From a virus (Duplodnaviria; Heunggongvirae; Uroviricota; Caudoviricetes): a stretch of DNA of 64,000 bases. This document shows, in pieces, positions 1,547 to 61,665 of the stretch. The number at the start of each line of letters is the position of its first letter. The first letter of the stretch is position 1. The stretch spans positions 4,544 through 68,543 of IMG/VR virus record IMGVR_UViG_3300029841_000009, one strand, 5' to 3'. The notes beneath the pieces were generated by a model that worked only from the letters and a program-made list of their open reading frames with translations, searched no databases and was not told the origin of the DNA. Made by a program: the position numbers and the translations under genes.

Positions 1547-2010
1547 TATTTTCTCTCCATGTGAAATCTGTGGAAATTAAGACCAAGAGCACCATAAGGC
1601 GCGGCTTCTTCAAGCCTGAATCCAAGCCAGTGCAGCCATGCTTTGGCAACATGGTTTCGCTCGTCGACATAGTTTTCCAGGCGCGGATAAACTGCCAGCA
1701 TCTGCTGCAATACAGGGCGGCAGTGGCGAAGAAATGTCTTCTGATATTTTTCGATACGGCTGGTTCCGACCAGCCAGGGCGTACCATTGCCACCGATCAT
1801 TGACGCCGGAGATACGCCAAACATGGTTACCAGTTCTCCGTTCGCGAACCCTGACCAGGCCATAGTCGCAGTGCGCAGACCAACACGCAGCGCATCTTTG
1901 GTAGTCATCAGCGATACCGCATACAGTTCGTCAATATCAGCCTGACGAACATCCGGCAAAATCATCTGAAGATGCTCTTCGGTTGCGGGAATAATTTGAA
2001 CATCGATCAT
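1546..2010 (-). CDS. Internal virion protein (T7 gp13-like position)
   Basis: 154-aa ORF directly downstream of the tubular B gene, sharing its stop/start junction. Confidence 0.4.
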   Translation of the reverse strand: MIDVQIIPATEEHLQMILPDVRQADIDELYAVSLMTTKDALRVGLRTATMAWSGFANGELVTMFGVSPASMIGGNGTPWLVGTSRIEKYQKTFLRHCRPVLQQMLAVYPRLENYVDERNHVAKAWLHWLGFRLEEAAPYGALGLNFHRFHMERK

Positions 2011-4481: not shown

Positions 4482-5086
4482 CAGGACAACCTCGCAATGG
4501 TAAACTCGTCAACCGGTGGCTGTGGTTCCTGTGATTCATTCTGGCTATGCGAGCCAGCACTAAGAATCACGCGATTGTACATATTGAGAGCAAATGTACC
4601 GAGATCCGCATTCCCAGTCAGCGCCATGTTAATGGCTGCCGCAAGACGCCAGGCCAGCGCCTCCATAAAAATGGCATCAAACATGTTTACATCTGAAACG
4701 CGAGAGACATACTTGAGCCATGCCTGCGGCTGGTCTGTGTAGATCAATTTTCCTGTTCCGTTGGTGTCTGCACCAACTTCGTACTGAACGCGCATTGCTG
4801 CTGTTGGATTGCGTACACCAGGAAGCATAATTTCAGTAATGCGCAGACAATCTGACGGGTACTGGTACGCATATTCCCAGTCAGGCGGTGGATTGCTCGT
4901 ATCTGCAAGCGCCACGCGTTTGGTAGCAAAGTTCCAGTCAAAATCAGAAAGCACAGCATCACGGCAGGCCTCAAAGTGCAGCGAACATTCCCCCGCTTCC
5001 TTGCTGGCTTCCGTCAGGCTGTTAATGCTGCGGCTGTTGCCAATATTGGACAGCGCACGATTGCAGATCTCTACTACAGAGGCCAT
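4481..5086 (-). CDS. Tail tubular protein A-like / head-tail adaptor (T7 gp11-like)
   Basis: 201 aa; N-terminal pattern ...ALSNIG...W.F resembles gp11-type adaptors; size and order fit. Confidence 0.55.
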   Translation of the reverse strand: MASVVEICNRALSNIGNSRSINSLTEASKEAGECSLHFEACRDAVLSDFDWNFATKRVALADTSNPPPDWEYAYQYPSDCLRITEIMLPGVRNPTAAMRVQYEVGADTNGTGKLIYTDQPQAWLKYVSRVSDVNMFDAIFMEALAWRLAAAINMALTGNADLGTFALNMYNRVILSAGSHSQNESQEPQPPVDEFTIARLS

Positions 5087-5142
5087 AAGTTTCTATACTC
5101 CTGCAATAAAGGGGCCGAAGCCCCTTGTCTGATTCGCGAGGC

Positions 5143-5487
5143 TTACACGCCCAGTTCTTTACGCTTATCTGCGATCTTCTCGCGTAGCGTTTCGGCTTTG
5201 GCGTTATGGTGTGGCTTCTCGTTAAAGAGCAATTCGTACTCTTCACGGAGCTTATCCAGTTCACCATCATCTGACACATCGTTGATGATTTTGGTGCTGG
5301 TTGCTGCCATTGACACCTTTCCTGCAACTTTTGCTTTTGCCTGTCTGGCTGCATCGTTAACAGGTTCCAGTGCGCTACCAGGCTCACCTTCGTATTCGAT
5401 TTCTGCCCCCTCCGGCCACAGAGTGTTATGGATATGAGAGAGGCGCAGAACGCGGTATCTTGGTTTCTCACCTGACATCGATATCAC
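5143..5487 (-). CDS. Hypothetical protein in virion module
   Basis: 114-aa ORF between capsid-associated genes and tubular A; charged C-terminus. Confidence 0.35.
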   Translation of the reverse strand: MISMSGEKPRYRVLRLSHIHNTLWPEGAEIEYEGEPGSALEPVNDAARQAKAKVAGKVSMAATSTKIINDVSDDGELDKLREEYELLFNEKPHHNAKAETLREKIADKRKELGV

Positions 5488-5488
5488 C

Positions 5489-5926
5489 TTAACCAGTTAC
5501 TTTTGAGCGGATCGGGTACGGCGTATTGGCATCAACATCCAGACTGATACCCGCAGTGAATTTGCCAGCCGTTAGTGGGCCAGTTGCGACGGAGTAGTTA
5601 ACACGCAGATATCGCTGAACACCGGCAGGCACCTTTGCAGAAACAACTCGTTTACCTGCTGTCAGGGCGGTCTTTGCCAGTGCGCCACTATCATAAATAG
5701 TGGTCCATGAGCTGTTATTCTCACTCGTCTGCAACTGGATGTTTACAGTTGCATCACCGCTTGCCGCGGCGGCTGCGTTAACCAGCGCCCAAAACTCAAG
5801 CGGGTAACCCACGCCGATATCACGACGTTTTCCGTCAATTGGACCGAGATCGATTACGTCAGTAGAAGCCGCGGTATTCGTAACCGCCTGAGCTTCGGAG
5901 AACATCAACAGTTTGTCGGTGATCAT
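5489..5926 (-). CDS. Hypothetical capsid-associated protein (possible decoration / minor capsid)
   Basis: 145-aa Ala/Thr/Gly-rich ORF immediately downstream of the major capsid gene. Confidence 0.35.
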   Translation of the reverse strand: MITDKLLMFSEAQAVTNTAASTDVIDLGPIDGKRRDIGVGYPLEFWALVNAAAAASGDATVNIQLQTSENNSSWTTIYDSGALAKTALTAGKRVVSAKVPAGVQRYLRVNYSVATGPLTAGKFTAGISLDVDANTPYPIRSKVTG

Positions 5927-5977
5927 CTTCTTTCTCCATTAGTGGGTCTGTTACGACCCACAGGTTAATAACAGGCG

Positions 5978-6970
5978 TTACACCACGCGGGCTTCTGTTT
6001 CCAGAAGCGCATCAGTTTCACGGATTGGTACACCACGGAATGAAGTCCACCACTCGCCTTCAGTCTCTTTTACGCTGATAGCCAGAGATGTTTTCTCCAG
6101 AGATTGCAGATCAAGAGCCTGGCCTACAGTGCGGTTCATGTAGAACACCGGGCGGCCCATGCCACGGTTTGGAATGCGATGTAGTGCTTTAACCATCAAC
6201 TTCGCAATATTTGCGGCAGAGGATGGTTCTGAAATATTGCTGACATCGATGTTTGCAATGCGAACAACATAACGCCAGTCACGCAGAGCAAGTCCGTTAT
6301 CCCATTTGTAATGGGTGCGATAGCCTTCGTACTTGCCGCCATTAGCATCTTCCAGTGTCACCTGGCCTTTATCTTCCATCTGGATGCCAGCCTTCTGCCC
6401 TTTCGGGAAGATGCCATGCACGGTGTTTTCGCCCCACACCACTAACCAGATTGAGGTGTTATCTGTACCCGTGCCACCAGCATCAATGATGTTCTGAGCA
6501 TTACCCGCAGACAGGCTGGAATAGCGGGAGGACAGTCCCATAAACTGCTGAGGGTTAACGCTGGAATCACCATAAAACAGCGTCTGCGCCATCTGCTGAT
6601 TCATCGCTTCAATAAATGCGCGGTCTTCAGACAGGCGGAATTCGGCGGTATTGCCGTTCAGATCAGCCAGTGACTTATCGACTTCCGCATAGGTTTCCAG
6701 CATGCCAACGGAATCGGTTACCTGCACTGTGGTTGATTTGCTTGGCTGTACGCCATAGTTCAGCAAACGCCAGGTAGCTGAAGGTAAACCAGAACGAATG
6801 GTGGTTCGGTGTCCGGTAGGAAGGTTCCCTTCGACAAAAGGCATATCCTGAAGGATCGGGTTAGTTTGACCGAGAAGCTCGATAATCTTATCGACTTTCC
6901 CGTTTGGATCGACGCGCTTACCCCAGTCAGCCAGCGTTAGCGCAGTTAAGCCTTTAACAGCCATTGTCAT
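5978..6970 (-). CDS. Major capsid protein
   Basis: 330 aa, between scaffold and tail genes; size and position of T7 gp10-like capsid protein. Confidence 0.65.
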   Translation of the reverse strand: MTMAVKGLTALTLADWGKRVDPNGKVDKIIELLGQTNPILQDMPFVEGNLPTGHRTTIRSGLPSATWRLLNYGVQPSKSTTVQVTDSVGMLETYAEVDKSLADLNGNTAEFRLSEDRAFIEAMNQQMAQTLFYGDSSVNPQQFMGLSSRYSSLSAGNAQNIIDAGGTGTDNTSIWLVVWGENTVHGIFPKGQKAGIQMEDKGQVTLEDANGGKYEGYRTHYKWDNGLALRDWRYVVRIANIDVSNISEPSSAANIAKLMVKALHRIPNRGMGRPVFYMNRTVGQALDLQSLEKTSLAISVKETEGEWWTSFRGVPIRETDALLETEARVV

Positions 6971-6978
6971 TTCCTCTC

Positions 6979-7680
6979 TTATTTGCCATAGAGCACTTCG
7001 GCCGCACTACGCTGGCCTTCATTACCACCGGTGACCATGCCATCTTCAGACATCGCCTTTCCGATTTTCACGAACGTTTTGACCAGATCAGGGTGATTAC
7101 CCAGCCCGGTGGTGTTCAGATATTCTTTGAGTTCAGGTGTCCCGAACTGGTCAAGCGCACGCTGTGCGGCGCTAAGGTTAGAAATCAACTTGTCGCCACC
7201 GATTTCTTTGTCGGCTTTTACATCCGCTGCCCACTGCTCGGTTGTTTTCTGCCAGGCTTCTGCCTGGCGCTGCTGAACACCTGCCAGAATCTTCGGATAA
7301 GCATCAACCAGCTTTTGCGCTTGCTCGTTGGTCAGGTTTAGTTCTCGCGCCACCGGCTCGAATTCCTTCAACGCTTCTGTATCCAGCTCTACGCCTTCGG
7401 CAGCCTGAAACTCGTACTTTTCAGGCGCACCCTCTGGTTTATCGCCGTCCTTTTTTTCATCCTGCTTATCGTTTTCAGGCTTTTTGTCATCAGCAGGTTT
7501 ATCGCCATCAGCAACAGGTTGTGGCTTATCACCTTCCTGTTGTGATGGATCACCAACTGGAGCAGGGTTATCACCTGCAGGCGCTGACGGTTCTGACGCA
7601 GCCGGAGCTGCTCCACCATCGACTGGTTGCTCATTGCAAAGACGGCGATACAGCAAACGCTCAAATAAATTCATGATCAC
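6979..7680 (-). CDS. Scaffolding protein
   Basis: 233 aa, highly acidic with a Pro/Ala/Asp/Lys-rich low-complexity N-terminus and helical C-terminus; lies between portal and capsid. Confidence 0.6.
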   Translation of the reverse strand: MIMNLFERLLYRRLCNEQPVDGGAAPAASEPSAPAGDNPAPVGDPSQQEGDKPQPVADGDKPADDKKPENDKQDEKKDGDKPEGAPEKYEFQAAEGVELDTEALKEFEPVARELNLTNEQAQKLVDAYPKILAGVQQRQAEAWQKTTEQWAADVKADKEIGGDKLISNLSAAQRALDQFGTPELKEYLNTTGLGNHPDLVKTFVKIGKAMSEDGMVTGGNEGQRSAAEVLYGK

Positions 7681-7973
7681 TCCTGTTCACTGGCCTCTTT
7701 GGCCATCTTCAAATACTGTTCAGGGCAATGCGCCATAACGCGCTGAAACAGTTCCAGCGCCAGATTGCGTTGCCCCTCATTAAATGCCATTGCCATAGCG
7801 TCCATCGGTGAGATAGCGGAAAACACACGGCCTTTCTCCAGCACCGACCAGACAACGCGACGCCCCTGTTCACTGCTCATGACAAAGCGAATGTCATCAA
7901 TTTCACGCTGTGCCATGTCACGTTGCTTACGGGCGTTTTCTTCTTTCAGTTGATCATCTTCGTAATCTGTCAT
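7677..7973 (-). CDS. Hypothetical small protein
   Basis: 98-aa ORF between portal and scaffold, overlapping both. Confidence 0.35.
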   Translation of the reverse strand: MTDYEDDQLKEENARKQRDMAQREIDDIRFVMSSEQGRRVVWSVLEKGRVFSAISPMDAMAMAFNEGQRNLALELFQRVMAHCPEQYLKMAKEASEQE

Positions 7974-9649
7974 TGTGATTGCCCACCCTGACCACTAACT
8001 GCATTCGCCATAGCTGACAAAACACTCGGATCCGAAGTTTTAGCTTCGCTTAGCGTCTTGGCACCCTGTGCCGCCGCCATCCCCATCGCCATCATTTGTT
8101 GCTGCTGTTGTTGCTGTGCCCGTTGCTGGCGAGCCTGCTCAACCTGTTCCTGCGGAACAATGACGGTTGGAGACACTCCGGACATATCAGCGAATGCATC
8201 GATCGCCTGATCAACGTTGAGTTTGTCGAGAGCTTCTGGTTTCGCTTGCGCAAGTTGACCAATGAAGTTAACCGTGGACGCCAGACTGGACAGGCCGATA
8301 GACTTCTGCGCCTGAGCCATGACGGAAATGTATTCGACCTTCAGGGGCATACCTTCCATCACGTCTGGCGGTGGCGGCAGCATGTTTTTACGCACCATCA
8401 TCGAGAAAGAGCGGTCAATGAGAGGATTAAGACATTCGTCGTTCAGACGCTCCAGAACCGGCCCCAACATCAGAAGTTTTTCTTCTTTCATTTCGATCAC
8501 CGCTTCAACAGGCATCGAGCGGGTATTGATGTTCTGCAACATCATGAACAGATCGACAAAGTAGGCGCTGTTAATGATTTGACGAGTGTCCTGAATGTCT
8601 GCCACCAAATCTGCTGTACTGGGGTTAACCAGATAAGCAGGCCTGAAACCATCCTGACCAGTAATCTGATCGATATACGTGATGTCGCCAGGAAGAAGGG
8701 AGGCACGCTGATTCTTGAGGGAAGTCGGAGCAACCATCGGCGGATTGGTGGCTTTATCAATCAACTGCGACTTGCGCTTCTGGAGAAGCTGCAATGCCTT
8801 AACAGGTCCAAGCGCCAGCATACCCGGGCATGATGATCCATAAACATCTTCGCCGTTAACTTCCCAGCGCGGGGCCATAATTGGAAACTCATCGAATCCG
8901 GACTCACGCAACAACTTGTCGTTATCGCCACCAACCTCGTAATAAACCGATTTGAATGGCTTGTTCTTGCTATCCAGCTTCGATGTATCGCGGTCAATGT
9001 TCGGGTAAACCGAATGCATCACTTCAATCCACTTCTCGTAGGTTCCGCTTTCCCACATGCTTTTTACGGATTCGCTGACGTTATTTAGCCCGAACTCCTG
9101 AACAAGCTGACGAACAGTCATAGAGAACTTGCGAAAACAGGTGTCCACACTGCCACGAGGTGAGTTAGCCAGGTAGTAACTGCCTATCGGGAATGGCATT
9201 GTGCGAATGATGTCCTCGTCATCCTCCAGCACTGCCATTGCACCAGTGCTGTATGTGCCGAGGCTTCCGTATAACTGCGGCAGCGACTGATAGAGATTCG
9301 ACTTATTGAACATATCGTTCATGCGGTTCTGCACCGCCTCAAGCCACAACTTAACAGGGCCATAATCCATCATTTCAGGATCTGGCGTAGCCAGGCGAAA
9401 CCACGGACGCGCGGGGCTTGTGATGCCTGACATCATGCCGCTGGCGAGAGTGCGCGCCGCCATAGTCCCGGTCGAATCAATAATGCGTGTATTGCGTCGA
9501 TCGTTACGGTTGACCTCAGAAGTCAGAAAGCGGGAACCACGCGGGTTGATGTAATCACTCAACTCGCGCCAGTGCGGCTCGAACGACTGACGCTCGCTTT
9601 CAAGTTGTGCGAACTGTTTGTTCAATCGCTCTTTAGTTGTTTCCGCCAT
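7970..9649 (-). CDS. Portal / head-to-tail connector (T7 gp8-like)
   Basis: 559 aa; C-terminus QQQQQQMMAMGMAAAQGAKTLSEAKTSDPSVLSAMANAV resembles the Gln/Ala/Met-rich C-terminus of T7-type connectors. Confidence 0.75.
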   Translation of the reverse strand: MAETTKERLNKQFAQLESERQSFEPHWRELSDYINPRGSRFLTSEVNRNDRRNTRIIDSTGTMAARTLASGMMSGITSPARPWFRLATPDPEMMDYGPVKLWLEAVQNRMNDMFNKSNLYQSLPQLYGSLGTYSTGAMAVLEDDEDIIRTMPFPIGSYYLANSPRGSVDTCFRKFSMTVRQLVQEFGLNNVSESVKSMWESGTYEKWIEVMHSVYPNIDRDTSKLDSKNKPFKSVYYEVGGDNDKLLRESGFDEFPIMAPRWEVNGEDVYGSSCPGMLALGPVKALQLLQKRKSQLIDKATNPPMVAPTSLKNQRASLLPGDITYIDQITGQDGFRPAYLVNPSTADLVADIQDTRQIINSAYFVDLFMMLQNINTRSMPVEAVIEMKEEKLLMLGPVLERLNDECLNPLIDRSFSMMVRKNMLPPPPDVMEGMPLKVEYISVMAQAQKSIGLSSLASTVNFIGQLAQAKPEALDKLNVDQAIDAFADMSGVSPTVIVPQEQVEQARQQRAQQQQQQQMMAMGMAAAQGAKTLSEAKTSDPSVLSAMANAVSGQGGQSQ

Positions 9650-9663
9650 TTCAATGACTCCGG

Positions 9664-9870
9664 TTACTGACCAAGCAGCGTTTTACCGCTGGTATTAGCG
9701 GTTGATGTGTCGCCCTGAGAACCGGTAAGCAGCGTAGAACTACGACCAGCAGCAGCGCGACGGCGACGAGTTTCTTCGTCGCGGGCATCAACAACGGCGG
9801 CATCCTGCTCCTGTGGTGCTGCCTGAACTTCTGGTGTTGCAGGCACTGATGGTGAGCTACCCATGCACAT
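9664..9870 (-). CDS. Hypothetical small low-complexity protein
   Basis: 68-aa ORF ending 15 nt before the portal start; Ala/Thr/Gln-rich; coding status uncertain. Confidence 0.25.
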   Translation of the reverse strand: MCMGSSPSVPATPEVQAAPQEQDAAVVDARDEETRRRRAAAGRSSTLLTGSQGDTSTANTSGKTLLGQ

Positions 9871-10297
9871 ATCAATGACTCCGTACGCAATTAAATTATT
9901 ACCAATTTAACCACATATGATTTATTTATCGTAGATAGTTGACATTTAACGCACAAATTATTACCTTTCAGGTAACCAAAGAATTCATTCCGGTTACTAA
10001 CCTGACTGGCTTGTCGTTAAATTGAACAGGTGGAGTGAGCTTTTATTTTGAGCAGTACGGCGTATGGCACATGCGCCGATAGCGGTCTGGATACGTTTAA
10101 GGGGCACCCTCCCTGGCTGTGGCAAACGAACCAGGTAGCCGGAATGTGCAAGTCGAGCGGTTTTATTCCGCGCACGGGGATTCACCATCCCGGCGATTCG
10201 GTGTGACGCCTCGGAAGAGACGAGGGTACAACGATGAGAGCATTTATGGAGCCGCGACAAAGTGTGGCGCCTTAACAGGCTAAGTGCTCTCAGCGTT

Positions 10298-10374
10298 GTG
10301 GCATTAGCTCAGTCGGACAGAGCAACCGCCTTCTAAGCGGTTGGTCGCAGGTTCGAATCCTGCATGCCACGCCA
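10298..10374 (+). tRNA. tRNA-Arg (anticodon UCU)
   Basis: Cloverleaf read by hand: acceptor GTGGCAT/ATGCCAC, D-arm GCTC..GAGC, anticodon stem ACCGC/GCGGT with loop CTTCTAA, T-arm GCAGG-TTCGAAT-CCTGC, discriminator G, CCA. Confidence 0.8.
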
Positions 10375-10537
10375 GAATCACGCCTAAGGACCGTGATGCC
10401 AGAAGTTCCAGGTGCTTGGCGGTGATGGTTTCCCTTGAAGGACTATCACCACCCTTTTTACAGCAGGACGCCATTGCGATGACTTCATGCTGTAAACCAG
10501 TACAGCCACGGAAGGCATAACTCATTGCTTCCAGTTC

Positions 10538-10561
10538 GCCCGATTCGCCGGGCATTTTTTT
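10538..10561 (+). terminator. Rho-independent terminator downstream of the tRNA
   Basis: GCCCG-attcgc-CGGGC hairpin followed by ATTTTTTT. Confidence 0.5.
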
Positions 10562-10572
10562 AAGGTGAGATT

Positions 10573-10944
10573 ATGAACGACCAGCAAATCGAAAAAGAAA
10601 TCGTTGAGAAAGGCAAAACGGCACCGCGCGTTACGCCAGACCATATCGAAGGCATTATTGCTCAGGAGGCATATTTCACAGCAGAAGATGGTGCCTTTGG
10701 CAAAGCCATAAAAGAGAAACATACTGGCGGAGAGGTAAACTACCAGCCGCACGAATCACTTTCTCTGCTGACGTTCTGCGTCCTGGTGCTGCGCAACGGC
10801 TTCACCGTCACCGGAGAGAGCGCCTGTGCAAGCCCGGAAAACTTTGATGCGGAAATTGGTCGGAAGATTGCCCGGCAGAATGCTGTAAACAAAATCTGGA
10901 TGCTCGAAGGTTACTTGCTGAAGCAGAAGCTAAGCGAGCAATAA
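10573..10944 (+). CDS. Hypothetical moron protein (opposite orientation to the structural operon)
   Basis: 123-aa ORF with strong SD (AAGGTGAG) 4 nt upstream of the ATG; sits with the tRNA between TerL and portal on the opposite strand. Confidence 0.5.
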   Translation: MNDQQIEKEIVEKGKTAPRVTPDHIEGIIAQEAYFTAEDGAFGKAIKEKHTGGEVNYQPHESLSLLTFCVLVLRNGFTVTGESACASPENFDAEIGRKIARQNAVNKIWMLEGYLLKQKLSEQ

Positions 10945-11034
10945 CGCCGTGACATGTCACAATCAGCCAGCCTATGAGCTGGCTTTGTTTTATCCTCACC
11001 AGAGGATATCAGCAGCATTATCCCATCCAGCGGA

Positions 11035-12510
11035 TTAAGCATAGGGATCGTAATCTGTGATGGCTTTGCCTTGCTGGTTCTGCTGCCCGGGAATTCGCAG
11101 ACGCTTCGACACAGGGAACGCAAACGTCAGCAGTAGCGCATCGCCTTTACCAGGAGAACGCCCAAGTCGCTCTTTGATATCTTCCTTCGGTTCGATAACG
11201 ATTTTACCGTCCACGCGAACTTTGTACTCTGCCGTCGACAGGTCGTCCGCTGTTTCCTGGTCATCCAGCATGCCGCCGAGCCTCAGCCATGTCTTGCATG
11301 AGTTGAACATCTCCCCACGCTTGTTGAGCATCTGCGGGTCAGTAGACGCGCCACCGAACGGAACAAGTTGCCATGTACGACCCCAGCCGTCACCGATTGA
11401 CTTCAAACCGGTTCCGTAACCGAAGTCGATGAACACCGCGTCAGCCTGATACTGGTCTTCAAAGTCAGCGATACGCTTCGCCATAATCAGATCGTCGGTA
11501 GTCTTGTTGCCAGTCCACAGCACCTTACTGTGTAGCCCCTGCCGCAGGTATATCACCGCGTCATCAACGCCTGAATATGCCGGGTCAACACCGATTATCA
11601 CCGGAGCATGTGCAACCTGCGCAGCGGTTACCACCCGTTTCATTGCCTCGTCAGTAAGACCGGTAGGGATAAACTGCAATTCAGATGCATCAGGGAATAT
11701 GCCACGCACACGGATTTTAACGAAGTCGCTATCTTCCCCGTAGTCATCAACCCATTTCTGCAACTGCTGTTTGTTGGTGCCTTCCACCGTCCTGCTGTCA
11801 ATCTGCGCAGTTTTCCAGCGGTGTTTGTATTTGCGGAAACATTCACGGAAACGCCCGGTGTTACGTGTAGGGTTTCCGAAAGCCACCCAGATAATCTCAG
11901 TGTCTTCGTCCGTTAGCGCACCCTCGGCAACTTCCCACACCAGATCCGCAATGTTCGACGCTTCATCAAATACCACAATGATGCGTTTACGCTCGTTGTG
12001 TAGTCCGGCGAATGCCTCAGTGTTGTGCTCAGACCAGGGGATTGCGTCAGCTCGCCACCGCTTGTCGTGCCCAGGGTCATTGCTGTACATCGCGGTAGCG
12101 GTACAGGTAAACCAGTCTTTCGTGATAGCAAGGTTTGACCACTTGATAATTTCCGGCCAGGTCTTCGTTCGTAGCTGGTTGTCGGTGTTGGCGGTCACCA
12201 CGACCTTACAATCCTCGCAAGTGGACATGCCCCAGTTGATCAGCATTGAGATGAATGCGGATTTACCAATACCGTGACCAGAAGCACGTGCCAGCATAAG
12301 CGGCTGATATCGCGTCTCTGGATTCTGCAGGTGATCACGTATCTCTCGGAACGCATCAGCCTGCCACTGACGTGGGCCGGTGGCATGTGCCAGTTCAGTC
12401 CCCTCTTCCCCCCATGGGAACGCATAGAGGGCATAGCCAAGCGGATCGTGAGTGAACCCTGCAATATCCTCGATTAACTGCTCTTCAGGAGATAACGCTG
12501 TATCTGTCAC
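11035..12510 (-). CDS. Terminase large subunit
   Basis: 491 aa; Walker-A-like GHGIGKS near the N-terminus; directly downstream of TerS. Confidence 0.8.
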   Translation of the reverse strand: MTDTALSPEEQLIEDIAGFTHDPLGYALYAFPWGEEGTELAHATGPRQWQADAFREIRDHLQNPETRYQPLMLARASGHGIGKSAFISMLINWGMSTCEDCKVVVTANTDNQLRTKTWPEIIKWSNLAITKDWFTCTATAMYSNDPGHDKRWRADAIPWSEHNTEAFAGLHNERKRIIVVFDEASNIADLVWEVAEGALTDEDTEIIWVAFGNPTRNTGRFRECFRKYKHRWKTAQIDSRTVEGTNKQQLQKWVDDYGEDSDFVKIRVRGIFPDASELQFIPTGLTDEAMKRVVTAAQVAHAPVIIGVDPAYSGVDDAVIYLRQGLHSKVLWTGNKTTDDLIMAKRIADFEDQYQADAVFIDFGYGTGLKSIGDGWGRTWQLVPFGGASTDPQMLNKRGEMFNSCKTWLRLGGMLDDQETADDLSTAEYKVRVDGKIVIEPKEDIKERLGRSPGKGDALLLTFAFPVSKRLRIPGQQNQQGKAITDYDPYA

Positions 12511-13184
12511 TGATTGCCATCCTGACGTTCTTTCAGTCTCTTCCTGGCTGCCGCTATGCGATCAGCAATTGTCACATTCACATTAACATCCAGGCGTTCT
12601 TTGAATGCGTTGACGTCGACGTGCTTACCAATCAGTTCGAGGTTCTTCACCTTGTCAGGCCATTTAATTTTTTTGAGGATGCCAACCAGCTCTTTCTCGT
12701 CTCCACGGCCTTCGAACATGTCGGCCAGTTCGAAACCTGTCAGGTACTGCCGCCAGACCTTAGGCCATTCCGAGACCGGCTTGATGCTCATATCGTCGTT
12801 GAGAATGTCAATCACGTCCATCTGGTCGATCTCCACCAGGCGCATGAGAACGTAATCAGCACTGACGCGCATTCGTTTGTTGCGCTCCTCCATCAACTCG
12901 GCAATCCGTTTCTGAATGCGTTCATCGCGCATCATGACACTGGCTTTAACTGCCGCTGTATTTGGGGAGAATCCTGCATTAATCGCAGCCTGAGTCTGGT
13001 TTTCAGGCGTTTTGATGTATGACTGGCAATAAGCCTCCTGCATTGCTGTTAGTGGCTTAAATTGCGTTGATTTGCGTTTATAGGTTTTAGGTTCAGCAGG
13101 CATCATAACCACCGTGGTAATAGTTACCGTTGTGGTAATAGTACCATGCAAAATAAAGCCGCCATAGTTGGCGGCAGTATTCAA
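12507..13184 (-). CDS. Terminase small subunit (true start probably near 13106)
   Basis: Helical DNA-binding N-domain pattern (QEAYCQSYIKTPENQTQAAINAGFSPNTAAVKAS) of small terminases; the poly-Thr N-terminal extension in the ORF is probably untranslated. Confidence 0.65.
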   Translation of the reverse strand: MNTAANYGGFILHGTITTTVTITTVVMMPAEPKTYKRKSTQFKPLTAMQEAYCQSYIKTPENQTQAAINAGFSPNTAAVKASVMMRDERIQKRIAELMEERNKRMRVSADYVLMRLVEIDQMDVIDILNDDMSIKPVSEWPKVWRQYLTGFELADMFEGRGDEKELVGILKKIKWPDKVKNLELIGKHVDVNAFKERLDVNVNVTIADRIAAARKRLKERQDGNQ

Positions 13185-13224
13185 AACCCATCAAATTCAT
13201 CATGCATAACCCACTCGTGACATG

Positions 13225-13578
13225 TCACAATATTAATTTCGTTTCATGCCAGCCTTTAGTCACCCAGCATTGCGAGTCACCATTACACGGGCATGAATTC
13301 ACAGGAACTCTCTCGCCGCACTTACCGCAACGTTTTCTGCTGATCGATTTTATACGCCCGTGCACGCGCGCATCATCCTGGCGGATCAGTAACGCTATAT
13401 ACTCACCAAATTCGTAAGGCGCACGCCCGGGGCGACGTGTGGCACAGTTACGCTCCAGCATTTCAATTTCCTGAGCATCAAGCACAATCTCCAGCTTACG
13501 CACACCAGATGCAGCTTGTCTGGCTCTCTGAGCGGCTTTGCGCTCTGCTGCTGCCTTAGCCATTACCATATCCACCAA
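13225..13578 (-). CDS. Hypothetical protein with Cys-rich C-terminus
   Basis: 117-aa ORF upstream of TerS; CGKCG...CPC motif suggests zinc binding. Confidence 0.35.
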   Translation of the reverse strand: MVDMVMAKAAAERKAAQRARQAASGVRKLEIVLDAQEIEMLERNCATRRPGRAPYEFGEYIALLIRQDDARVHGRIKSISRKRCGKCGERVPVNSCPCNGDSQCWVTKGWHETKLIL

Positions 13579-13648
13579 ACTTCACCAGACATGATTCTCG
13601 CAATCACTATCATCACCAAAGTGATAATCACAACTTTAACTGGCGGCA

Positions 13649-14026
13649 TCATTCACCATCCTGCTCCGGCGGTTCTGGCAGCGGCATCCAGTGGGTTACC
13701 TCCTTGAGATACAGGTCTTCGCCACCACCGTCATCCCAAGTGGGCTTGCCATCATTAAACCAGTCGCCATATACGCCGACCTGAGTGTTGGGGATGCTTG
13801 GTGGGTAGTTGTTTTTAAAGTCAGCAGCTAACACATAGCATTGTCGCTCTCCCATTTCTGGCATTCGTTCACTACAGCTTATCCAACTCTCCGGAGTTAC
13901 CGGAGAGTTGCCAGCCTCATACGCCACACGCATCCAGTGCATAAGCGTTTCAGTGCTCACACAGCCGCAATCAACATCAATTTTGCCGTGCTGCTGTTCC
14001 AGCCATTGCTCAAGCGTAGTGCTCAT
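13649..14026 (-). CDS. DUF551-like protein
   Basis: C-terminal THWMPLPEPPE motif typical of lambdoid DUF551 proteins. Confidence 0.55.
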   Translation of the reverse strand: MSTTLEQWLEQQHGKIDVDCGCVSTETLMHWMRVAYEAGNSPVTPESWISCSERMPEMGERQCYVLAADFKNNYPPSIPNTQVGVYGDWFNDGKPTWDDGGGEDLYLKEVTHWMPLPEPPEQDGE

Positions 14027-14256
14027 TTTTCATCCCCCCGATGATGCCATCTGCATCGCATCTCATAACACCCCCACTCAACACGAAAACCACATAGCCT
14101 GTGCAGATCCACCCACTTCTGCGCCATCGCTGGCGACGTGTAAATCACAGTGAATGCGTTATCTTCGTTGTCGATTTGCGTAAACGTCACTTTGTACAAC
14201 AACCCACCGTCGACACATGCTGTGTTCAACGATTTATTGCTAATACCCTCAATCAT
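14023..14256 (-). CDS. Hypothetical protein
   Basis: 77-aa ORF coupled to neighbours. Confidence 0.35.
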   Translation of the reverse strand: MIEGISNKSLNTACVDGGLLYKVTFTQIDNEDNAFTVIYTSPAMAQKWVDLHRLCGFRVEWGCYEMRCRWHHRGDEK

Positions 14257-14900
14257 TCGTACTCACCCCCCGCTGTTTTGAATTTGATCTCCGCTGCCTG
14301 CAATGCGTGTTCGACGTCGAAGCGGTCCAGCCATCCACCAAAGTGGTGCGGCATCATTACCACCCGCTCACCGCTATTTATTGGGTGGCCCATACGGGGT
14401 TCGTAGCCGTCCGGTAACTCGACTTCCCGCGCTTCCAGTTCTGCTATGCGCTTCTCTGATGCTTCAAGTAACGCCTGCTTATCGCGTAGCGCTTCTTCCA
14501 GTTCAGCAACATGGCACTCACTATCAATAAGGTTGTTCTCTGCGGCTTCCAGCTCAACACGCAGCTTCCCTACCGTTAGCGCAATATCCTCGTTCTCTTG
14601 GTCGCGGCGTTTGATGTATTGCTGGTTTCTTTCCCGTTCATCCAACAATGCCAGCACGGTAACTGGATTGGCTGCGGCGATGAATTCAGCATTGGCCTGC
14701 TGTTCCATTTGGAAATCTTCATCGAAACCGCTTTCAGGATGCGCTCCTTCAATTCTGCAAATGGGAAGATATCCAACAACTTCACGATGAATTAGCGCAT
14801 CACCAGCATCAAATCTCTCCTCTCCATATTCTAGCGACCACACACCACACGTTGCTTTTTCTGCCTTAGCACGCAGTGCCTGGTAATTAATTTCGCTCAC
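14253..14900 (-). CDS. Ead/Ea22-like protein
   Basis: N-terminus MSEINYQALRAKAEKA and coiled-coil core LLDERERNQQYIKRRDQENEDIALTVGKLRVELEAAE, as in lambdoid Ead/Ea22 proteins. Confidence 0.55.
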   Translation of the reverse strand: MSEINYQALRAKAEKATCGVWSLEYGEERFDAGDALIHREVVGYLPICRIEGAHPESGFDEDFQMEQQANAEFIAAANPVTVLALLDERERNQQYIKRRDQENEDIALTVGKLRVELEAAENNLIDSECHVAELEEALRDKQALLEASEKRIAELEAREVELPDGYEPRMGHPINSGERVVMMPHHFGGWLDRFDVEHALQAAEIKFKTAGGEYE

Positions 14901-15137
14901 TGGCTGCCTCCTGCTTTTCTGCCTTCAACACCATGCGAGAACCATCATCCAGCTCCCACACTATCTCACCACCTTCAGCCATGACCAGTTGCCACACCAA
15001 TTGAGCAGCCTCATTGGTAACATCACGACCTGGATCATTGCCAACGCGCATACGTCCACCTTCAACATCGCGCATTTTTGCCAGCATGATAGTTTTTGAT
15101 AGCGGTGAAAAACCAAGCTGTAGTCGTGCTGAATTAC

Positions 15138-15764
15138 TCACTGGTTGCCTCCTTTGCGAAGCTGTTCCGCCCATTCTTCAAGGGATTTCTCCGCATATTC
15201 ACCGGACAGGCCATCAATCGGATGCGCTTCATTAACCAACTCTTCTTTCGCTGACAAAATCATGCGTGTAACGTCGAAAACTTCACGCAAAGACTTATTG
15301 ATAAATCCGTGATTGAACGCAGCAGCAAGACGGCTGGCGGTATAGTTAATCCCCTCGTTGCGTGCTTCCGCACGAATTTCAGCCAGAAAAGCATCGGTAG
15401 CTGGAGTTTCGCTGTGGTGTAGGGCATCATTGATAATCATTGCAGCAACACCAGCCTGCCCTGCATCCGTGACCGACACATGCTCAAGAGTTACGGCCAT
15501 TGCGTGTTTCAGTCCGTCGTTCTCCACCACCAGCGCAGCGAGATTAGTCTCATACTCCGCAATTCGGCACATAGCATCGATATTTGTGTCCTCCAGCCGC
15601 TTAATTTCATCCAGTAGCGCCAGCACAACCTGCGGTGTGACCTTCATACGAAACGCGAGCAATTTTTGCGGCGTTGCCACGACTTTTATTGCTTCTGCTG
15701 CCTCACGCAGTGCCTGGTAATTAATTTCGCTCACTGGTTGCCTCCTGAATACGCTTAAACTCAA
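15138..15764 (-). CDS. Ead/Ea22-like protein (paralog)
   Basis: Contains SEINYQALREAAEA; its 3' ~250 bp is near-identical to 63750-64000. Confidence 0.5.
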   Translation of the reverse strand: MSLSVFRRQPVSEINYQALREAAEAIKVVATPQKLLAFRMKVTPQVVLALLDEIKRLEDTNIDAMCRIAEYETNLAALVVENDGLKHAMAVTLEHVSVTDAGQAGVAAMIINDALHHSETPATDAFLAEIRAEARNEGINYTASRLAAAFNHGFINKSLREVFDVTRMILSAKEELVNEAHPIDGLSGEYAEKSLEEWAEQLRKGGNQ

Positions 15765-23349: not shown

Positions 23350-23371
23350 AAAAAAGGCCCCCGAAGGGGCC
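23350..23371 (-). terminator. Rho-independent terminator (minus-strand orientation)
   Basis: GGCCCC-cgaa-GGGGCC hairpin with T5 on the minus strand. Confidence 0.5.
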
Positions 23372-23377
23372 TAATCG

Positions 23378-23500
23378 CTACTTGCTGCTAATGTTTATCG
23401 TCACATTCAGAGCGTTATCAGTAATCTTCCAACCCTCCCCATGTGGCGTAAACAAAGCTCCAGTAACAACGATAAAAATACACATACAGTATTTTTTCAT
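23378..23500 (-). CDS. Small hydrophobic protein (40 aa, MKKYCMCIFIVVTGALFTPHGEGW...)
   Basis: Internal start of the 23378-23560 ORF with AAGGG SD 7 nt upstream; hydrophobic N-terminus; terminator downstream. Confidence 0.3.
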   Translation of the reverse strand: MKKYCMCIFIVVTGALFTPHGEGWKITDNALNVTINISSK

Positions 23501-23731
23501 TGTATGGCCCTTACAGGCCGTTTCACGGCATCCCCACCGACGAAAACAACGCGAGAGCAAGCACGGCTGCTTGTGCTTGCATGTACGGCAACGGAGAATC
23601 CTCCCCTAAAGTCGGTGCCCGGGTGCGAATCGGCGGGAAGGTCCACAGGTATTTTACGATTATTTTAAGATTAGTTATAGGAAAGAAATTAAACGAAAAA
23701 ACTCGTTTATTTTCACAAAATCAGTAACCTA

Positions 23732-23958: not shown

Positions 23959-24014
23959 TGTCTCTGTTAAAATCCCGCCGTATTGACATAAATGCGCCAT
24001 TGGTGGACACTTTC

Positions 24015-24095
24015 CGAGCCGTAGCAAAATCTACGGTCGGGATTGGAACCCCGATAATCATCATGGCGCATACCGCGTTAGCGGTTTTTTTATGC
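24015..24095 (+). ncRNA. Candidate c4-like antisense/regulatory RNA in the antirepressor leader
   Basis: Hairpins CCGTAG-caaaat-CTACGG and TCGGG-AUUGGAA-CCCGA, then terminator ACCGC-gtta-GCGGT plus T7; loop UUGGAAC is complementary to GUUCCAA at 24175-24181. Confidence 0.3.
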
Positions 24096-24256
24096 GTAAA
24101 GCACTGCTACACCCAAATTATGGTGGGGCGTGCGGGGGAGTCGTAAGACTCGCCGGATTCCATGGTGACCGGTAGTTCCAACCCTGTACGTCTCACCACC
24201 CAATGATTGGAACCAGACGGTGGTGAGTATCCTTAACCTTTAAGGGAACTATCACC

Positions 24257-24448
24257 ATGACAAACCTACCCCATGACTATTACGTCAACCTCGTAAAGAT
24301 CCTTCTCAAGAAAGCCTCATACGCCGATAAATTCCGCCTGGCTGAAATCATCGAGCGCGAAGCTATGCGCATCGCCAGCAACGATAACGCTGTTTCTGTC
24401 GCAAAAATCTCCCTCGTAACCAAAGTAGTTATGGGAGGTGCAAAATGA
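24257..24448 (+). CDS. Small protein translationally coupled to the antirepressor (Icd-like position)
   Basis: 63-aa ORF; its stop overlaps the ant ATG (ATGA). Confidence 0.4.
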   Translation: MTNLPHDYYVNLVKILLKKASYADKFRLAEIIEREAMRIASNDNAVSVAKISLVTKVVMGGAK

Positions 24449-25626
24449 AAACGCTTCCGACCGTTAACACCCTACAGCCTATCCTGCATAACCAGCTCCC
24501 CGTTATCACTACTGAACTACTGGCGCAATTGTATGGAACCGAGCGCCAACGTCTGACAAACAATTTCAATAGAAACAAGGAACGTTTTATAGAAGGTAAA
24601 CACTTTTTTAGGATAGAAGGTAAAGAGTTACGAGAGTTGAAGAACAAAAACTCTTTAAGAGTTCCTGTGAGAGTAGTTAACGAACCATCTTTAAGAGGGT
24701 TACAAATTCCCCCGAAAGTTCGCTCCCTCATCCTCTGGACAGAACGCGGGGCTGCACGTCACGCCAAAATGCTTGAAACTAACCAAGCGTGGGATGTGTT
24801 CGAACGGCTGGAAGACAGCTACTTCAACCAGAACGCACAAACGGCCGCGACCGTAACCGTCTCACCAAACAATGCTCGTGAGGTTGTCGATACGCTCAAC
24901 GCCAAACCAATGTATTACGTTAAGGTGTGCAACAACGAGCCACTCACAACCTCAGCCGATGTTGCCCAAGCATTCAGCACCACAAACAATTCCATCGTTA
25001 TGGCCATCGATGCGTTACGCATTCCTCGCACGGCTGCGGCGCGTCACTTCTTTAAAGAACAACGACCGCTGGAAGGAAGCGACCGCGAAATAACAATCTA
25101 TCGCATGACAAAAGACGGATTTACCTTGCTCATGGAAAGTATCGACGGTCCAGGCGTGAAGGATATCAAGCTGGCCTACATTGAAGCCTTTAACGCTATC
25201 AGCAGCGTGTTAAAGGCAGAATACGAGCGAATGCTATACAACCGACTGTATCAGGAAACAAAGATTATCCGAACGGCAACAGAACATCATCGGCTATTAA
25301 CGGAACCAAACTACCGCAAGACACTAATCAAAGAGTTTGACAAGGCGACGGAGAAAACTAAAGCGGCACTAAATCTACCAACAATGACTAAAGATGATGT
25401 GATATCAGCCTTACTTCTTGATCTGCTCAGAAACGCCAGAGCACTTATCAGTTTTGACGAAAACCTGAATCCTCAGCTCAAGCTACTACCACCGACAGGC
25501 AAAGTAGTCGACCAAGCAGATCACAACAGCATACTCAGCGTACTGGATGCAAACCTGCCAGCCAGGACACTACAGGAGCTGATAAAAATATCTGCGGATA
25601 AACTGGCCGCAGGTGCAAAACCATAA
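24445..25626 (+). CDS. Antirepressor (ORF6N-like N-domain + Rha-like domain)
   Basis: N-terminal LYGTERQRLTNNFNRNKERFIEGKHFFRIEGKELRELKN; central ITIYRMTKDGFTLLMESIDGPGVKDIKLAYIEAFN (Rha-type). Confidence 0.75.
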   Translation: MKTLPTVNTLQPILHNQLPVITTELLAQLYGTERQRLTNNFNRNKERFIEGKHFFRIEGKELRELKNKNSLRVPVRVVNEPSLRGLQIPPKVRSLILWTERGAARHAKMLETNQAWDVFERLEDSYFNQNAQTAATVTVSPNNAREVVDTLNAKPMYYVKVCNNEPLTTSADVAQAFSTTNNSIVMAIDALRIPRTAAARHFFKEQRPLEGSDREITIYRMTKDGFTLLMESIDGPGVKDIKLAYIEAFNAISSVLKAEYERMLYNRLYQETKIIRTATEHHRLLTEPNYRKTLIKEFDKATEKTKAALNLPTMTKDDVISALLLDLLRNARALISFDENLNPQLKLLPPTGKVVDQADHNSILSVLDANLPARTLQELIKISADKLAAGAKP

Positions 25627-25630
25627 AACA

Positions 25631-25650
25631 AAGCGCCCGATTTGGGCGCT
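25631..25650. terminator. Bidirectional terminator hairpin between convergent genes
   Basis: AGCGCCC-gatt-GGGCGCT with A/T runs on both sides. Confidence 0.5.
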
Positions 25651-25660
25651 TCTTCAATTC

Positions 25661-26296
25661 TTAATATTTCGGTGTAATCAGTAGCGATACATGCCCTGAT
25701 TTGTCACGAGAAACGTAATACTCGCCTCTCTTAGTCTTGAACTCAGCTTTCTGCATATCTGATTTAACAATCTGCTCTAACTGCGCAATCACGGTGTCTC
25801 TTTCACTTGACGCATCCAAGACTTCAACTGCTACGGCCATAGAAAGCAAGGAATCAGAGTTAGGCTTGGATACTCGCCATAATAACTCAGAAATCTTCCC
25901 ATCCTTATCAACTCTAGCCCGACCGTTAACAGATGAGTTGATGGCAAATTCAACGGTGTTATTACCTTGTTTAACAGACTTAATTCTTATAGTGGAGGTG
26001 GCTTTTCCTGATGTAACGATGCCTTCAAGGTCATCATTATATAACTGCTTAAACTTATCTACGGTCACACCATCAAAAGCAGCTCCGGTAGTAGCCGCAG
26101 TGTTGGAGTCTTCTGGGATCAAGGTCACAGCCGCAAGAGTATTAACAACTACAAAAGTAGCAATCCCGAGAAAGCCACTCACTAAAACAGCTTTGAACTT
26201 ACCACCAGAAGACGAGGCACATTGTTTCCGATATGCGCCACGAACTACGAAGAAACACAAAATCAGGCTAATAATAAACGCCACCAGCATCCCCAT
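25661..26296 (-). CDS. Membrane-anchored hypothetical protein
   Basis: 211 aa with two predicted N-terminal TM helices and a Ser/Thr/Asn-rich soluble domain. Confidence 0.45.
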   Translation of the reverse strand: MGMLVAFIISLILCFFVVRGAYRKQCASSSGGKFKAVLVSGFLGIATFVVVNTLAAVTLIPEDSNTAATTGAAFDGVTVDKFKQLYNDDLEGIVTSGKATSTIRIKSVKQGNNTVEFAINSSVNGRARVDKDGKISELLWRVSKPNSDSLLSMAVAVEVLDASSERDTVIAQLEQIVKSDMQKAEFKTKRGEYYVSRDKSGHVSLLITPKY

Positions 26297-26862
26297 AGAA
26301 ATCTCCTTTTAGATATAAGGGTAAAGCAATATCGTATTAGATCTTCCTTAAGACACAACCCCCCCTCCCCCCATACAGGGTGCCCTTTACCGGAGTTCCG
26401 GCCCCTTCTCAAAAGCATCAAAAAAAGCTCGAGATCGAGTACCGGAACTCATGCCACCAGATAGCTCCACATCGTTTCCAATGCTTCGCCGCCGTGTGCG
26501 CCCTGTGGCCCACAATCATGCCATTGGTCGTCTGATATACCTTCTTCTGCTCATTGAGCACAGGCGAGTTGTCGCACTCCTGCCTTTCTCAGACTCGACT
26601 TAGTTTAGATCGCTGTTCCTGGCTTGCGTCAGCACACTTTCCCCTTGTACGCATACCCGCGCGCCACTTCGCCCAAAAACACCGAACCCAACGAAGTAGC
26701 AAAGACAACGACGCGAGCGTGAGTCTGAAACGTGCACCAGTAAAAAAGGGGTTGCAGGCGCAAAAAGATTTGATTATCTTTAGACGCAAGAAAGCCGCCC
26801 CAATCAAGAGGTGTCTTTTTAAATCCAGCCTACCAAGCAAGATTTAAATTTCAGACTGAAAA

Positions 26863-26890
26863 CCGCCCGGCAAGGCGGTTTTTGTCTTTC
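26863..26890 (+). terminator. Rho-independent terminator closing a 600-bp noncoding island
   Basis: AACCGCC-cggcaa-GGCGGTT followed by TTTTTGTCTTT. Confidence 0.5.
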
Positions 26891-26931
26891 TGGCGCTTAC
26901 ATTACACCACCAGAAAACGATCCGTAAAGGA

Positions 26932-27204
26932 TCATTTGATCCCTTGTTCCAATTCTGCCGACACTTTAACCTTTTCCCATACAAGGGTTTGCAGCCTTAA
27001 CAGAATCGCATCTTTATCAAGGTGTGAAAGATCCTTAACCATATCGTCAAACGACAGAACGCGAATGGCCATCTCAATGACCCTCGGCGGCTCCCCCTTC
27101 TCATATCGCTTATATGTAGCCAACGATATCCCAAACTCTTCGGCTGCTCGCTCCTGCGTCCAGTTCATCCCACGACGCCATAATTTCAATTCGTAACCCG
27201 TCAT
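26932..27204 (-). CDS. HTH-XRE family transcriptional regulator
   Basis: ELKLWRRGMNWTQERAAEEFGISLATYKRYEKGE: Cro/C1-type HTH. Confidence 0.6.
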   Translation of the reverse strand: MTGYELKLWRRGMNWTQERAAEEFGISLATYKRYEKGEPPRVIEMAIRVLSFDDMVKDLSHLDKDAILLRLQTLVWEKVKVSAELEQGIK

Positions 27205-27305: not shown

Positions 27306-27731
27306 ATGAGTTCATCTGCTTTTGTCACCGTGGTCACTGGTGTAAGTGTTTTTGTTCTAGGCCAACTCATCGTCAAAGGAGCTATTGAGCCTTACATTTC
27401 ATTCAGGGAACAACTAGGGAAAATATCCAATCTGTTATTATGTAACCAAGCAAAAATAGTGAATCCTAGCTCGAACTTAAAGCCAGAAATCATTCATGAT
27501 CTAAAAGATTCCGCAGCACAGTTAATGGCAAAATATTCCACTTTACCTTTCTATATCAAAAAGTTACATATCGGCTTTCGTCTTGTTCCATCAGCCACCG
27601 AGATTCTTGGGGCAGCTCGAAATTTGAACTATATAGCGTCAATACATGAAGGTAAGACTGGGGAGAATCCATCTAAGCATCTCGAAGAGATTGGCCATAT
27701 GCTCAAAATACCAACTACCTATTCAAGCTAA
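27306..27731 (+). CDS. Hypothetical protein with N-terminal TM helix (AT-rich gene)
   Basis: 141 aa; AFVTVVTGVSVFVLGQLIV TM segment; divergent from the HTH gene; visibly lower GC than its neighbours. Confidence 0.45.
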   Translation: MSSSAFVTVVTGVSVFVLGQLIVKGAIEPYISFREQLGKISNLLLCNQAKIVNPSSNLKPEIIHDLKDSAAQLMAKYSTLPFYIKKLHIGFRLVPSATEILGAARNLNYIASIHEGKTGENPSKHLEEIGHMLKIPTTYSS

Positions 27732-28376: not shown

Positions 28377-28676
28377 TCAGATGTTAAACGCTATTCGTTT
28401 TCCTGTGGGAAGCTCAACATCCAGGCTTAATTTGCCTCCCATAGCTTCAACGTAACGCTTTAATGTCGCCAGCTTTAAATCATTTCCGCGCTGCTCCAGC
28501 TTTGTTACTGCTGGCTGGCTTATACCCATCGCCTCAGCAACCTGCTTTTGTGATAACTGGAGTTCTTCACGCATCATCTGCAAGCCGACCTCAAGAATCA
28601 TCTCATCTGCCATTTCTTTAATTCGCGCCTGGCTTTCCGGTAAACGGCTGGCAATCACCTCATCTAATGTTCTCAT
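28377..28676 (-). CDS. higA: HigA-like antitoxin (HTH-XRE)
   Basis: 99 aa with HTH (LSQKQVAEAMGISQPAVTKLEQ); immediately downstream of and overlapping the toxin gene. Confidence 0.65.
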   Translation of the reverse strand: MRTLDEVIASRLPESQARIKEMADEMILEVGLQMMREELQLSQKQVAEAMGISQPAVTKLEQRGNDLKLATLKRYVEAMGGKLSLDVELPTGKRIAFNI

Positions 28677-29029
28677 TACTTGCTCTCCAGTGTGTTCAGA
28701 TGTGCTGCAAACTCATCCTCAGCTATACGCACCAGTTTTTTATAAAACCGCTTATCGTTACTTTTGTCTCCTGCACAAAGAACGATAGCCCGGCGAATCG
28801 GATCGAACGCATAAAAGGCTCTTATCGGACGGCCAGAAAACTGAACGCGAAGCTCTTTCATATTTTTGTACCGAGAACCTTTTACGGTATCGGCATATGG
28901 CCTGGGTAACTCAGGTCCGTAAACCTGTAGCTTTTTCAAATCAGCCAAAACCTTTTCCTGAAGAGCGTCTTCTTGCTCATTTAGCCAGCCGTCAAATCGC
29001 TGGCTAAAAAGTACCGTCCACATGCTCAA
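28676..29029 (-). CDS. higB: HigB-like toxin (RelE/ParE superfamily)
   Basis: 117 aa; toxin-first order; resembles the HigB / Gp49-like killer family. Confidence 0.65.
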   Translation of the reverse strand: MSMWTVLFSQRFDGWLNEQEDALQEKVLADLKKLQVYGPELPRPYADTVKGSRYKNMKELRVQFSGRPIRAFYAFDPIRRAIVLCAGDKSNDKRFYKKLVRIAEDEFAAHLNTLESK

Positions 29030-59800: not shown

Positions 59801-59876
59801 TGGTGGCCCCTACCGGATTTGAACCGATGACCGTGCGATTATGAGTCGCCTGCTCTAACCACTGAGCTAAGGGGCC
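59801..59876 (-). tRNA. tRNA with CAU anticodon (tRNA-Ile2-like, or Met)
   Basis: Minus-strand read GGCCCCTTAGCTCAGTGGTTAGAGCAGGCGACTCATAATCGC...GGTTCAAATCC...GGGGCCACCA; close to my recollection of E. coli ileX in acceptor, D and anticodon arms. Confidence 0.8.
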
Positions 59877-61652: not shown

Positions 61653-61665
61653 TGAAATCCTCGTT

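Follow-up and report, generated by a model that had tools for sequence, protein, structure and literature searches.

The gene at 25661-26296 of the window (the whole 64,000-nucleotide stretch of viral DNA analysed here) is genuine and constrained, and is an accessory cargo gene, or moron, of a ~48-kb enterobacterial phage-plasmid. Its 211-aa product is predicted to be an inner-membrane protein anchored by a hairpin of two TM helices, with an alpha/beta domain of ~140 residues facing the periplasm. The protein is ordinary in kind and orphan in sequence; the more novel feature of the locus is the conserved element directly upstream of it, which covariation suggests is a structured RNA on the minus strand, not previously described. 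An initial annotation of this DNA had taken the 211-aa protein for a candidate superinfection-exclusion factor, from its position and topology. We found nothing specific to superinfection exclusion, and regard this role as possible and the likeliest of those considered, if short of probable. The features of the locus are collected in Table 1.

Table 1. Features of the 211-aa gene and its surroundings, in window coordinates.
Feature	Position	Strand	Basis
P1-like immI leader	24018..24448	+	Rfam gathering-threshold matches; P1 c4-icd-ant gene order
isrK-like RNA	24018-24091	+	Rfam, 70 bits
C4 antisense RNA	24116-24203	+	Rfam, 84 bits
icd-like 63-aa ORF, overlapping the ant start	24257-24448	+	
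Antirepressor (ant), ORF6N and Rha domains, convergent neighbour of the 211-aa gene	24445..25626	+	Pfam, PHROG antirepressor families
Bidirectional hairpin terminator common to the antirepressor and 211-aa genes	25630..25652	.	Terminator scan
Accessory membrane protein CDS, 211 aa, ATG start	25661..26296	-	ORF listing
Periplasmic alpha/beta domain, residues 75-211, alpha-beta4-alpha2-beta3	25664..26074	-	Predicted
TM helix 2, aligning with the signal peptide of secreted paralogs	26117..26191	-	Hydropathy and alignment
TM helix 1, residues ~3-18	26243..26290	-	Hydropathy and AF2 helix 2-28
Shine-Dalgarno AAGGAG	26303..26308	-	6 nt 5' of the ATG, read from sequence
Weak sigma-70-like promoter candidate: TTGTGT (26353-26358), 16-nt spacer, TACGAT (26331-26336)	26331..26358	-	
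Conserved element, putative structured RNA, core ~485 nt	26346..26830	-	Conservation and covariation
Hairpin terminator/attenuator separating HTH gene and RNA element	26857..26884	.	-18.2 and -18.6 kcal/mol; invariant in alignment
XRE-type HTH gene, 90 aa, upstream of the 211-aa gene	26932..27204	-	Pfam HTH_3, HTH_31; synteny conserved
Lysis cassette, endolysin and holins	60445-61709		34 kb from the 211-aa gene

The gene belongs to a segment (~15149-63745) that corresponds to a ~48-kb phage-plasmid with an IncFII-type RepA, ParA, myovirus tail genes, a terminase and a lysis cassette. Among PLSDB plasmids, 62 are closely related to it, all non-mobilizable, 44-50 kb long and from E. coli, E. fergusonii, E. 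albertii, Salmonella or Klebsiella; further relatives are the Yersinia phages vB_YpM_39, vB_YpM_41 and vB_YpM_44 and two partial records of E. coli phages. The name pSLy3 was considered for this group and rejected, since pSLy3 is of the SSU5-type ~100-kb group. It should be noted that positions 1-15000 match another element, a 41-kb phage-like plasmid (capsid, Bbp16 cement protein, portal, terminase), and that the phage-plasmid segment (~48.6 kb) repeats itself at its ends (15149-15404 vs. 63745-64000) at only 97% identity. The window may thus span a junction, a cointegrate or a concatenation of two elements. Each of the two phage-like elements has one tRNA gene, at 10298-10371 (+) and 59804-59876 (-).

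The coding evidence for the 211-aa gene is plain. Pairwise dN/dS among five E. coli alleles was 0.14-0.21, TM and periplasmic parts alike, with no diversifying selection among these alleles. The full-length frame was kept in family members down to 27% identity, all indels being multiples of three. The GC content of the gene is slightly low (42.9% vs. 46.2%).

The two N-terminal TM helices of the initial annotation were recovered by both hydropathy analysis and AF2. Kyte-Doolittle analysis gave hydrophobic segments at residues ~3-21 and ~36-60, and in the AF2 model of the whole protein two long helices, at 2-28 and 33-58, are joined by a disordered linker (57-73) to a C-terminal domain of compact fold. 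Modelled by itself, this domain reached a pLDDT of 90.4 and a pTM of 0.86 (AlphaFold2, 13-sequence alignment). The loop between the two TM segments, RGAYRKQCASSSGGKFK, carries five positive charges, which by the positive-inside rule predicts an N-out/loop-in/C-out topology. The most distant paralogs, of 165-168 aa, have a classical signal peptide in place of the TM hairpin and still match PHROG 23465 over residues 77-200; this suggests, independently of the positive-inside rule, that the domain is exported. The extracytoplasmic location first proposed for the domain is therefore well in line with the topology, the model and the paralogs. Its description as rich in Ser, Thr and Asn needs tempering: these residues are indeed enriched C-terminal to TM2 (35 of 149, or 23%), to an extent that is moderate rather than striking.

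Few proteins resemble this one in sequence. As the initial annotation had it, no domain is recognisable: the 211-aa protein matched no family in Pfam or NCBIfam, a Pfam scan over all 13 family members gave noise only, and none of the PADLOC-DB 2.0 defence models was matched at E<=0.1. Its sole family match was PHROG 23465, over the full length, to which no function is assigned. A sequence profile search of the PDB gave nothing under E 0.2, and a BFVD fold search returned at E<1e-3 only uncharacterised or mis-sized proteins, with TM-scores of 0.57 or less. Neither PHROG nor BFVD yielded a family annotated for superinfection exclusion. Homology to a structural or lysis protein, which the initial annotation had named as evidence against exclusion, was looked for and none was found, either to structural proteins (Pfam, PHROGs, BFVD) or to a holin, spanin or other lysis family (Pfam, PHROG).

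A tblastn search of 50,697 phage records was likewise without a match. The family census combined an exhaustive HMM search (1.84 billion representatives) with a word-indexed one (5.8 billion proteins). Together they gave fewer than 20 clusters; every one comes from Enterobacteriaceae and bears the label "hypothetical". Orthologs occur in the same neighbourhood of related phage-plasmids, at 55% identity in Yokenella, 44% in Citrobacter and Salmonella Concord, and 36% and 27% in others; those at 44-55% occupy the same slot in four genera. The signal-peptide paralogs lie beside Rha-family genes, on the opposite strand, in Salmonella lambdoid prophages (L030 7001-7498; L031 3162-3659; L033 5001-5309), and one remote paralog is chromosomal in Enterobacter, stand-alone, with no evident prophage context. 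These data show that temperate enterobacterial phages have acquired the periplasmic domain repeatedly. The accessory regions that hold the Salmonella prophage paralogs also contain an AcrVA2-like gene and a solo Cas1 gene.

Within the phage-plasmid family, the 211-aa gene is optional. A megablast search of 5426 complete E. coli genomes found it in 15, always on plasmids of 47-57 kb, and found the flanking backbone in 72, so that ~79% of backbones (all except 15/72) are without the gene. The three deposited Yersinia phage isolates (vB_YpM_39/41/44) also have the backbone and lack the gene. One of the carriers is FDAARGOS_1280 (plasmid NZ_CP069971.1), whereas ATCC 25922 (plasmid NZ_CP009073.1) has the upstream RNA element and no 211-aa gene. 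The cassette that is swapped in gene-less relatives corresponds exactly to 25608-26345, i.e. the terminator, the gene and ~50 nt upstream, and is replaced there by ~242 bp. In such relatives the slot may hold instead a basic ORF of 62 aa (MMRRKASLLQAIG...), not of membrane type and accompanied by a hairpin of its own; it is located at 2186-2374 (-) of L002, has equivalents in L003 and L012-L014, and gave a marginal PHROG match only (E 1e-3). In a Salmonella Weltevreden plasmid and one metagenomic contig the slot is empty, and the upstream element runs directly into the terminator. Cargo genes thus insert between the 3' end of the RNA element and its terminator.

The 211-aa gene diverges in step with the immunity genes. 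Relative to the Yokenella and Citrobacter elements, the 211-aa protein (44-55% identity) and Ant (41-52%) are the fastest to diverge, vs. 92-95% for ParA and 81-86% for RepA. The identification of the surrounding genes as immunity and antirepressor genes was confirmed by the isrK-like and C4 RNAs, the icd-like ORF and the ORF6N and Rha domains of ant (Table 1). The shared bidirectional terminator was also confirmed: its hairpin is stable on both strands (-14.8 kcal/mol on the plus and -16 on the minus strand, with z values of -4.5 and -3.2) and has a T-rich tail on each side. A match to a c4-a1b1 target site was seen at 24005-24057, below threshold. Between the par genes and immI, at 23350-23646 (-), there is a full-length match to ryfA RNA (142 bits, with a gathering score of 80), and a ~49-aa ORF has been called at the equivalent site in relatives (L004 10507-10656). 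Loci of the ryfA type encode small toxic peptides; for 23350-23646 this is a lead only.

The initial annotation had also credited the 211-aa gene with an upstream noncoding region of its own. This part of the description did not hold up: the region is a conserved element that is kept in family members lacking the gene, and so is not a property of the gene. The element was present in 62 of the 62 PLSDB family members and in the three Yersinia phages, with or without the 211-aa gene, and is annotated in none of them. Over ~590 bp (26346-26931), identity to the Yokenella, Citrobacter and Salmonella elements is 89-91%, vs. 71-73% at the nucleotide level for the adjacent HTH gene. Within E. coli, the same stretch is ~99% identical, for a synonymous divergence of up to 0.19 in the neighbouring gene. 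Protein coding was rejected as an explanation of this conservation, since single-nucleotide indels between orthologs break every ORF.

Folding of the aligned sequences points instead to a structured RNA read from the minus strand, with an RNAalifold energy of -186 kcal/mol vs. -125 kcal/mol for the plus strand. Canonical pairs made up 99.5% of pair cells in the 13-sequence alignment. Seven pairs changed on both sides, five in the hairpin at 26663-26700 and two in that at 26469-26484, these counts being for a structure derived from the same alignment, to which four or five diverged lineages contribute. Many further pairs alternate G-U with G-C or A-U. None of 500 shuffles reached the covariation score, and a control in which the partners were slid by one to three columns gave only 41-49% pairing. 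One metagenomic copy of the element has cleanly lost the covarying hairpin. At the 3' end of the putative RNA lies an invariant G6AG7 tract (26359-26372), whose predicted partner, CAACCCCUUUUUU, is ~390 nt upstream.

In its length and in having a G-rich 3' end, the RNA is reminiscent of primer RNAs, e.g. ColE1 RNA II and the mitochondrial CSB II transcript; no sequence similarity to either was found. A ColE1-type origin was rejected, since blastn detected no similarity to any of 72,556 plasmids outside the family and RNAI matches were sub-threshold. A trans-acting antisense role was also rejected, as complementarity to the rest of the window was at chance level. In Rfam, the element had no match at the gathering threshold, and the matches seen (E 0.09-4.5) were at chance level and confined to the terminator hairpin. 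A genome-contig scan for copies outside the phage-plasmid family was empty, viral, metagenome and phage searches returned only family members and four chance 19-mer matches, and no related RNA was found upstream of the lambdoid-prophage paralogs or the P0010/P0012 loci. The persistence of the element at the empty slot, with the terminator following it, suggests that it is either an RNA gene in its own right or the 3' portion of the transcript of the HTH gene; the 90-aa HTH gene is probably the start of the transcription unit. The RNA could be a new regulator of immunity or of lytic replication.

Two routes to expression of the cargo can be considered. In every carrier of the 211- or 214-aa gene, a TAnnAT hexamer is found exactly 16 nt past the conserved TTGTGT, despite a diverged spacer, and this -10 hexamer is absent from the slots of non-carriers. 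Its restriction to carriers suggests that the cassette may complete a weak promoter of its own; it should be noted that the TTGTGT-N16-TAnnAT candidate scores under the consensus-scan threshold. The 62-aa ORF of gene-less relatives starts ~35 nt past the TTGTGT with no -10 element before it, which suggests that it is expressed by read-through only.

The closest parallel in layout is provided by phage P1. The simCBA genes of P1 are periplasmic exclusion genes that lie directly beside c4-icd-ant, block infection after adsorption and are dispensable for phage growth. Like them, the 211-aa gene is found in a plasmid prophage next to a c4-icd-ant immI region (the P1 layout was inspected), is dispensable, and encodes a protein with predicted export to the periplasm. 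The two systems differ in that SimC has a cleavable signal peptide, vs. a TM hairpin in the 211-aa protein, and in that sim is a three-gene operon divergent from c4, whereas the 211-aa gene stands alone on the opposite flank, convergent with ant. Homology to P1 SimC was rejected (hhalign probability 0.1%; BLASTP E 1.6 over 10 residues).

HK97 gp15, T4 Imm and Sp, and P22 SieA are small inner-membrane superinfection-exclusion proteins without enzymatic motifs, and HK97 gp15, a moron product, is anchored at its N terminus and has a domain in the periplasm. The 211-aa protein differs from this group in its predicted Nout-Cout hairpin anchor and 140-residue alpha/beta domain, and has no PHROG, Pfam or BFVD match to its members. 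The gene shares with the morons of lambdoid phages (bor, lom, cor, HK97 gp15) its presence or absence in a syntenic backbone, a terminator of its own and a slightly lower GC content, and lambdoid prophages carry its paralogs in their nin/Rha region, inserted on the opposite strand. It departs from them in lying 3' of a conserved, putatively structured RNA on whose read-through it may rely, its promoter being a weak candidate only. Among known folds, the extracytoplasmic alpha/beta domains of DUF4309 (B. subtilis YjgB, 4ygt) and of the YdcD double-wing (8wj5) bear some likeness to the periplasmic domain; scores were low, only ~60% was superposed and there was no sequence signal, and the likeness is uninformative as to function. 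The resemblance to exclusion or immunity proteins asserted in the initial annotation thus stands as far as position and topology are concerned, and does not extend to the sequence or fold of known exclusion proteins.

How might such a protein exclude phages? The 211-aa gene would be transcribed in the lysogen, either by read-through of the HTH-RNA unit or from the weak promoter at the junction, and its product would act at the envelope to exclude superinfecting phages. To get through the periplasm and the inner membrane, an incoming phage depends on certain components, one of which would be bound by the periplasmic domain; candidates are tail-tip, tape-measure or ejection proteins, or a host inner-membrane protein on which these rely. 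The role of the conserved TM hairpin would be to keep the domain at the site of entry, and adsorption would proceed while DNA entry failed. Superinfection exclusion by a block to DNA entry is the commonest role for proteins of such design. The context fits a prophage-expressed envelope gene: an optional insert by the immunity region, under purifying selection, with a periplasmic domain and paralogs in prophages. In favour of exclusion we also took the positional precedent of P1, where sim adjoins immI, and the divergence of the gene in step with the immunity genes. We counted against exclusion the lack of diversifying selection, which an arms-race interface might show, and the one stand-alone chromosomal paralog.

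Many other roles are known for membrane-anchored periplasmic proteins carried by prophages. The 211-aa protein might be an envelope factor of lysogenic conversion that has nothing to do with phage entry, either a periplasmic inhibitor or immunity protein guarding the lysogen against toxins that act in the periplasm, such as bacteriocins or T6SS, Rhs or CDI effectors, or an agent of envelope change that benefits host fitness; we consider this somewhat unlikely. Another idea, with a low probability in our estimation, is that of an abortive-infection or membrane-perturbing effector, in which the TM hairpin would be the active part (as a pore or by depolarising the membrane) and the periplasmic domain would sense infection or gate the hairpin in response to it. 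Indeed, the TM1-loop-TM2 module is conserved above the periplasmic domain, both in the family alignment (47% invariant columns over residues 1-60 vs. 28%) and in identity to the Citrobacter ortholog (65% vs. 38%), and the cytoplasmic motif R..YRKQ and a small-xxx-small motif within TM2 are invariant. However, TM segments are often conserved through compositional constraint alone, and the secreted paralogs keep the domain and drop the hairpin entirely, which suggests that the hairpin is not needed for the domain to function. Nor did we find anything that might accompany such an effector, be it a partner gene, a toxin-like feature or a match in PADLOC.

An auxiliary role in the phage's own lytic cycle, whether in the timing of lysis (antiholin- or spanin-like), virion release or injection, strikes us as very improbable. 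The product is a phage-encoded membrane protein, and its gene is read in the same direction as the regulatory HTH gene, but it lies far from the endolysin/holin cassette (Table 1), matches no holin or spanin family, and is absent from most of the family, including the three phage isolates. The gene-less isolates, together with the distance to the lysis cassette, argue that the 211-aa protein is neither structural nor involved in lysis. That the frame might be a spurious or decaying ORF devoid of function, as an orphan family that is nowhere annotated could suggest, is effectively refuted by the conservation data: the low dN/dS and the retention of the full-length frame, to which the strong ribosome site and the confidently modelled AF2 domain can be added.

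If the 211-aa protein does exclude phages, it would represent a new family without relatives among known exclusion or defence proteins. Such a family would move between phage-plasmids and lambdoid prophages of clinical Enterobacteriaceae, with consequences for host range in phage therapy and for competition among phage-plasmids. A more ambitious proposal is that the locus is a two-part module, in which an undescribed ~500-nt RNA is followed by a 3' cargo slot and the 211-aa protein, expressed via read-through of the RNA, founds a new periplasm-facing exclusion family; taken as a whole, we hold this to be doubtful. Whatever the 211-aa protein does, a large and strongly constrained element, probably an RNA, marks the point at which cargo is inserted, within the immunity region of a phage-plasmid that is widespread in E. 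coli and Salmonella.

Two further observations were made on the other side of the HTH gene. The pair of genes at 28377-29029 (-), annotated in relatives as a RelE/ParE (HigB-like) toxin and an HTH antitoxin, is probably a plasmid-addiction module of the phage-plasmid. There is also a second variable slot, at 27306-27731 (+), which holds a 141-aa ORF. It has a hydrophobic segment in its N-terminal part, is oriented divergently from the HTH gene of 90 aa and matches PHROG 7512 (no function known); this ORF is absent from L001 and from the Yersinia phage L003, and is present in the window and in L002.
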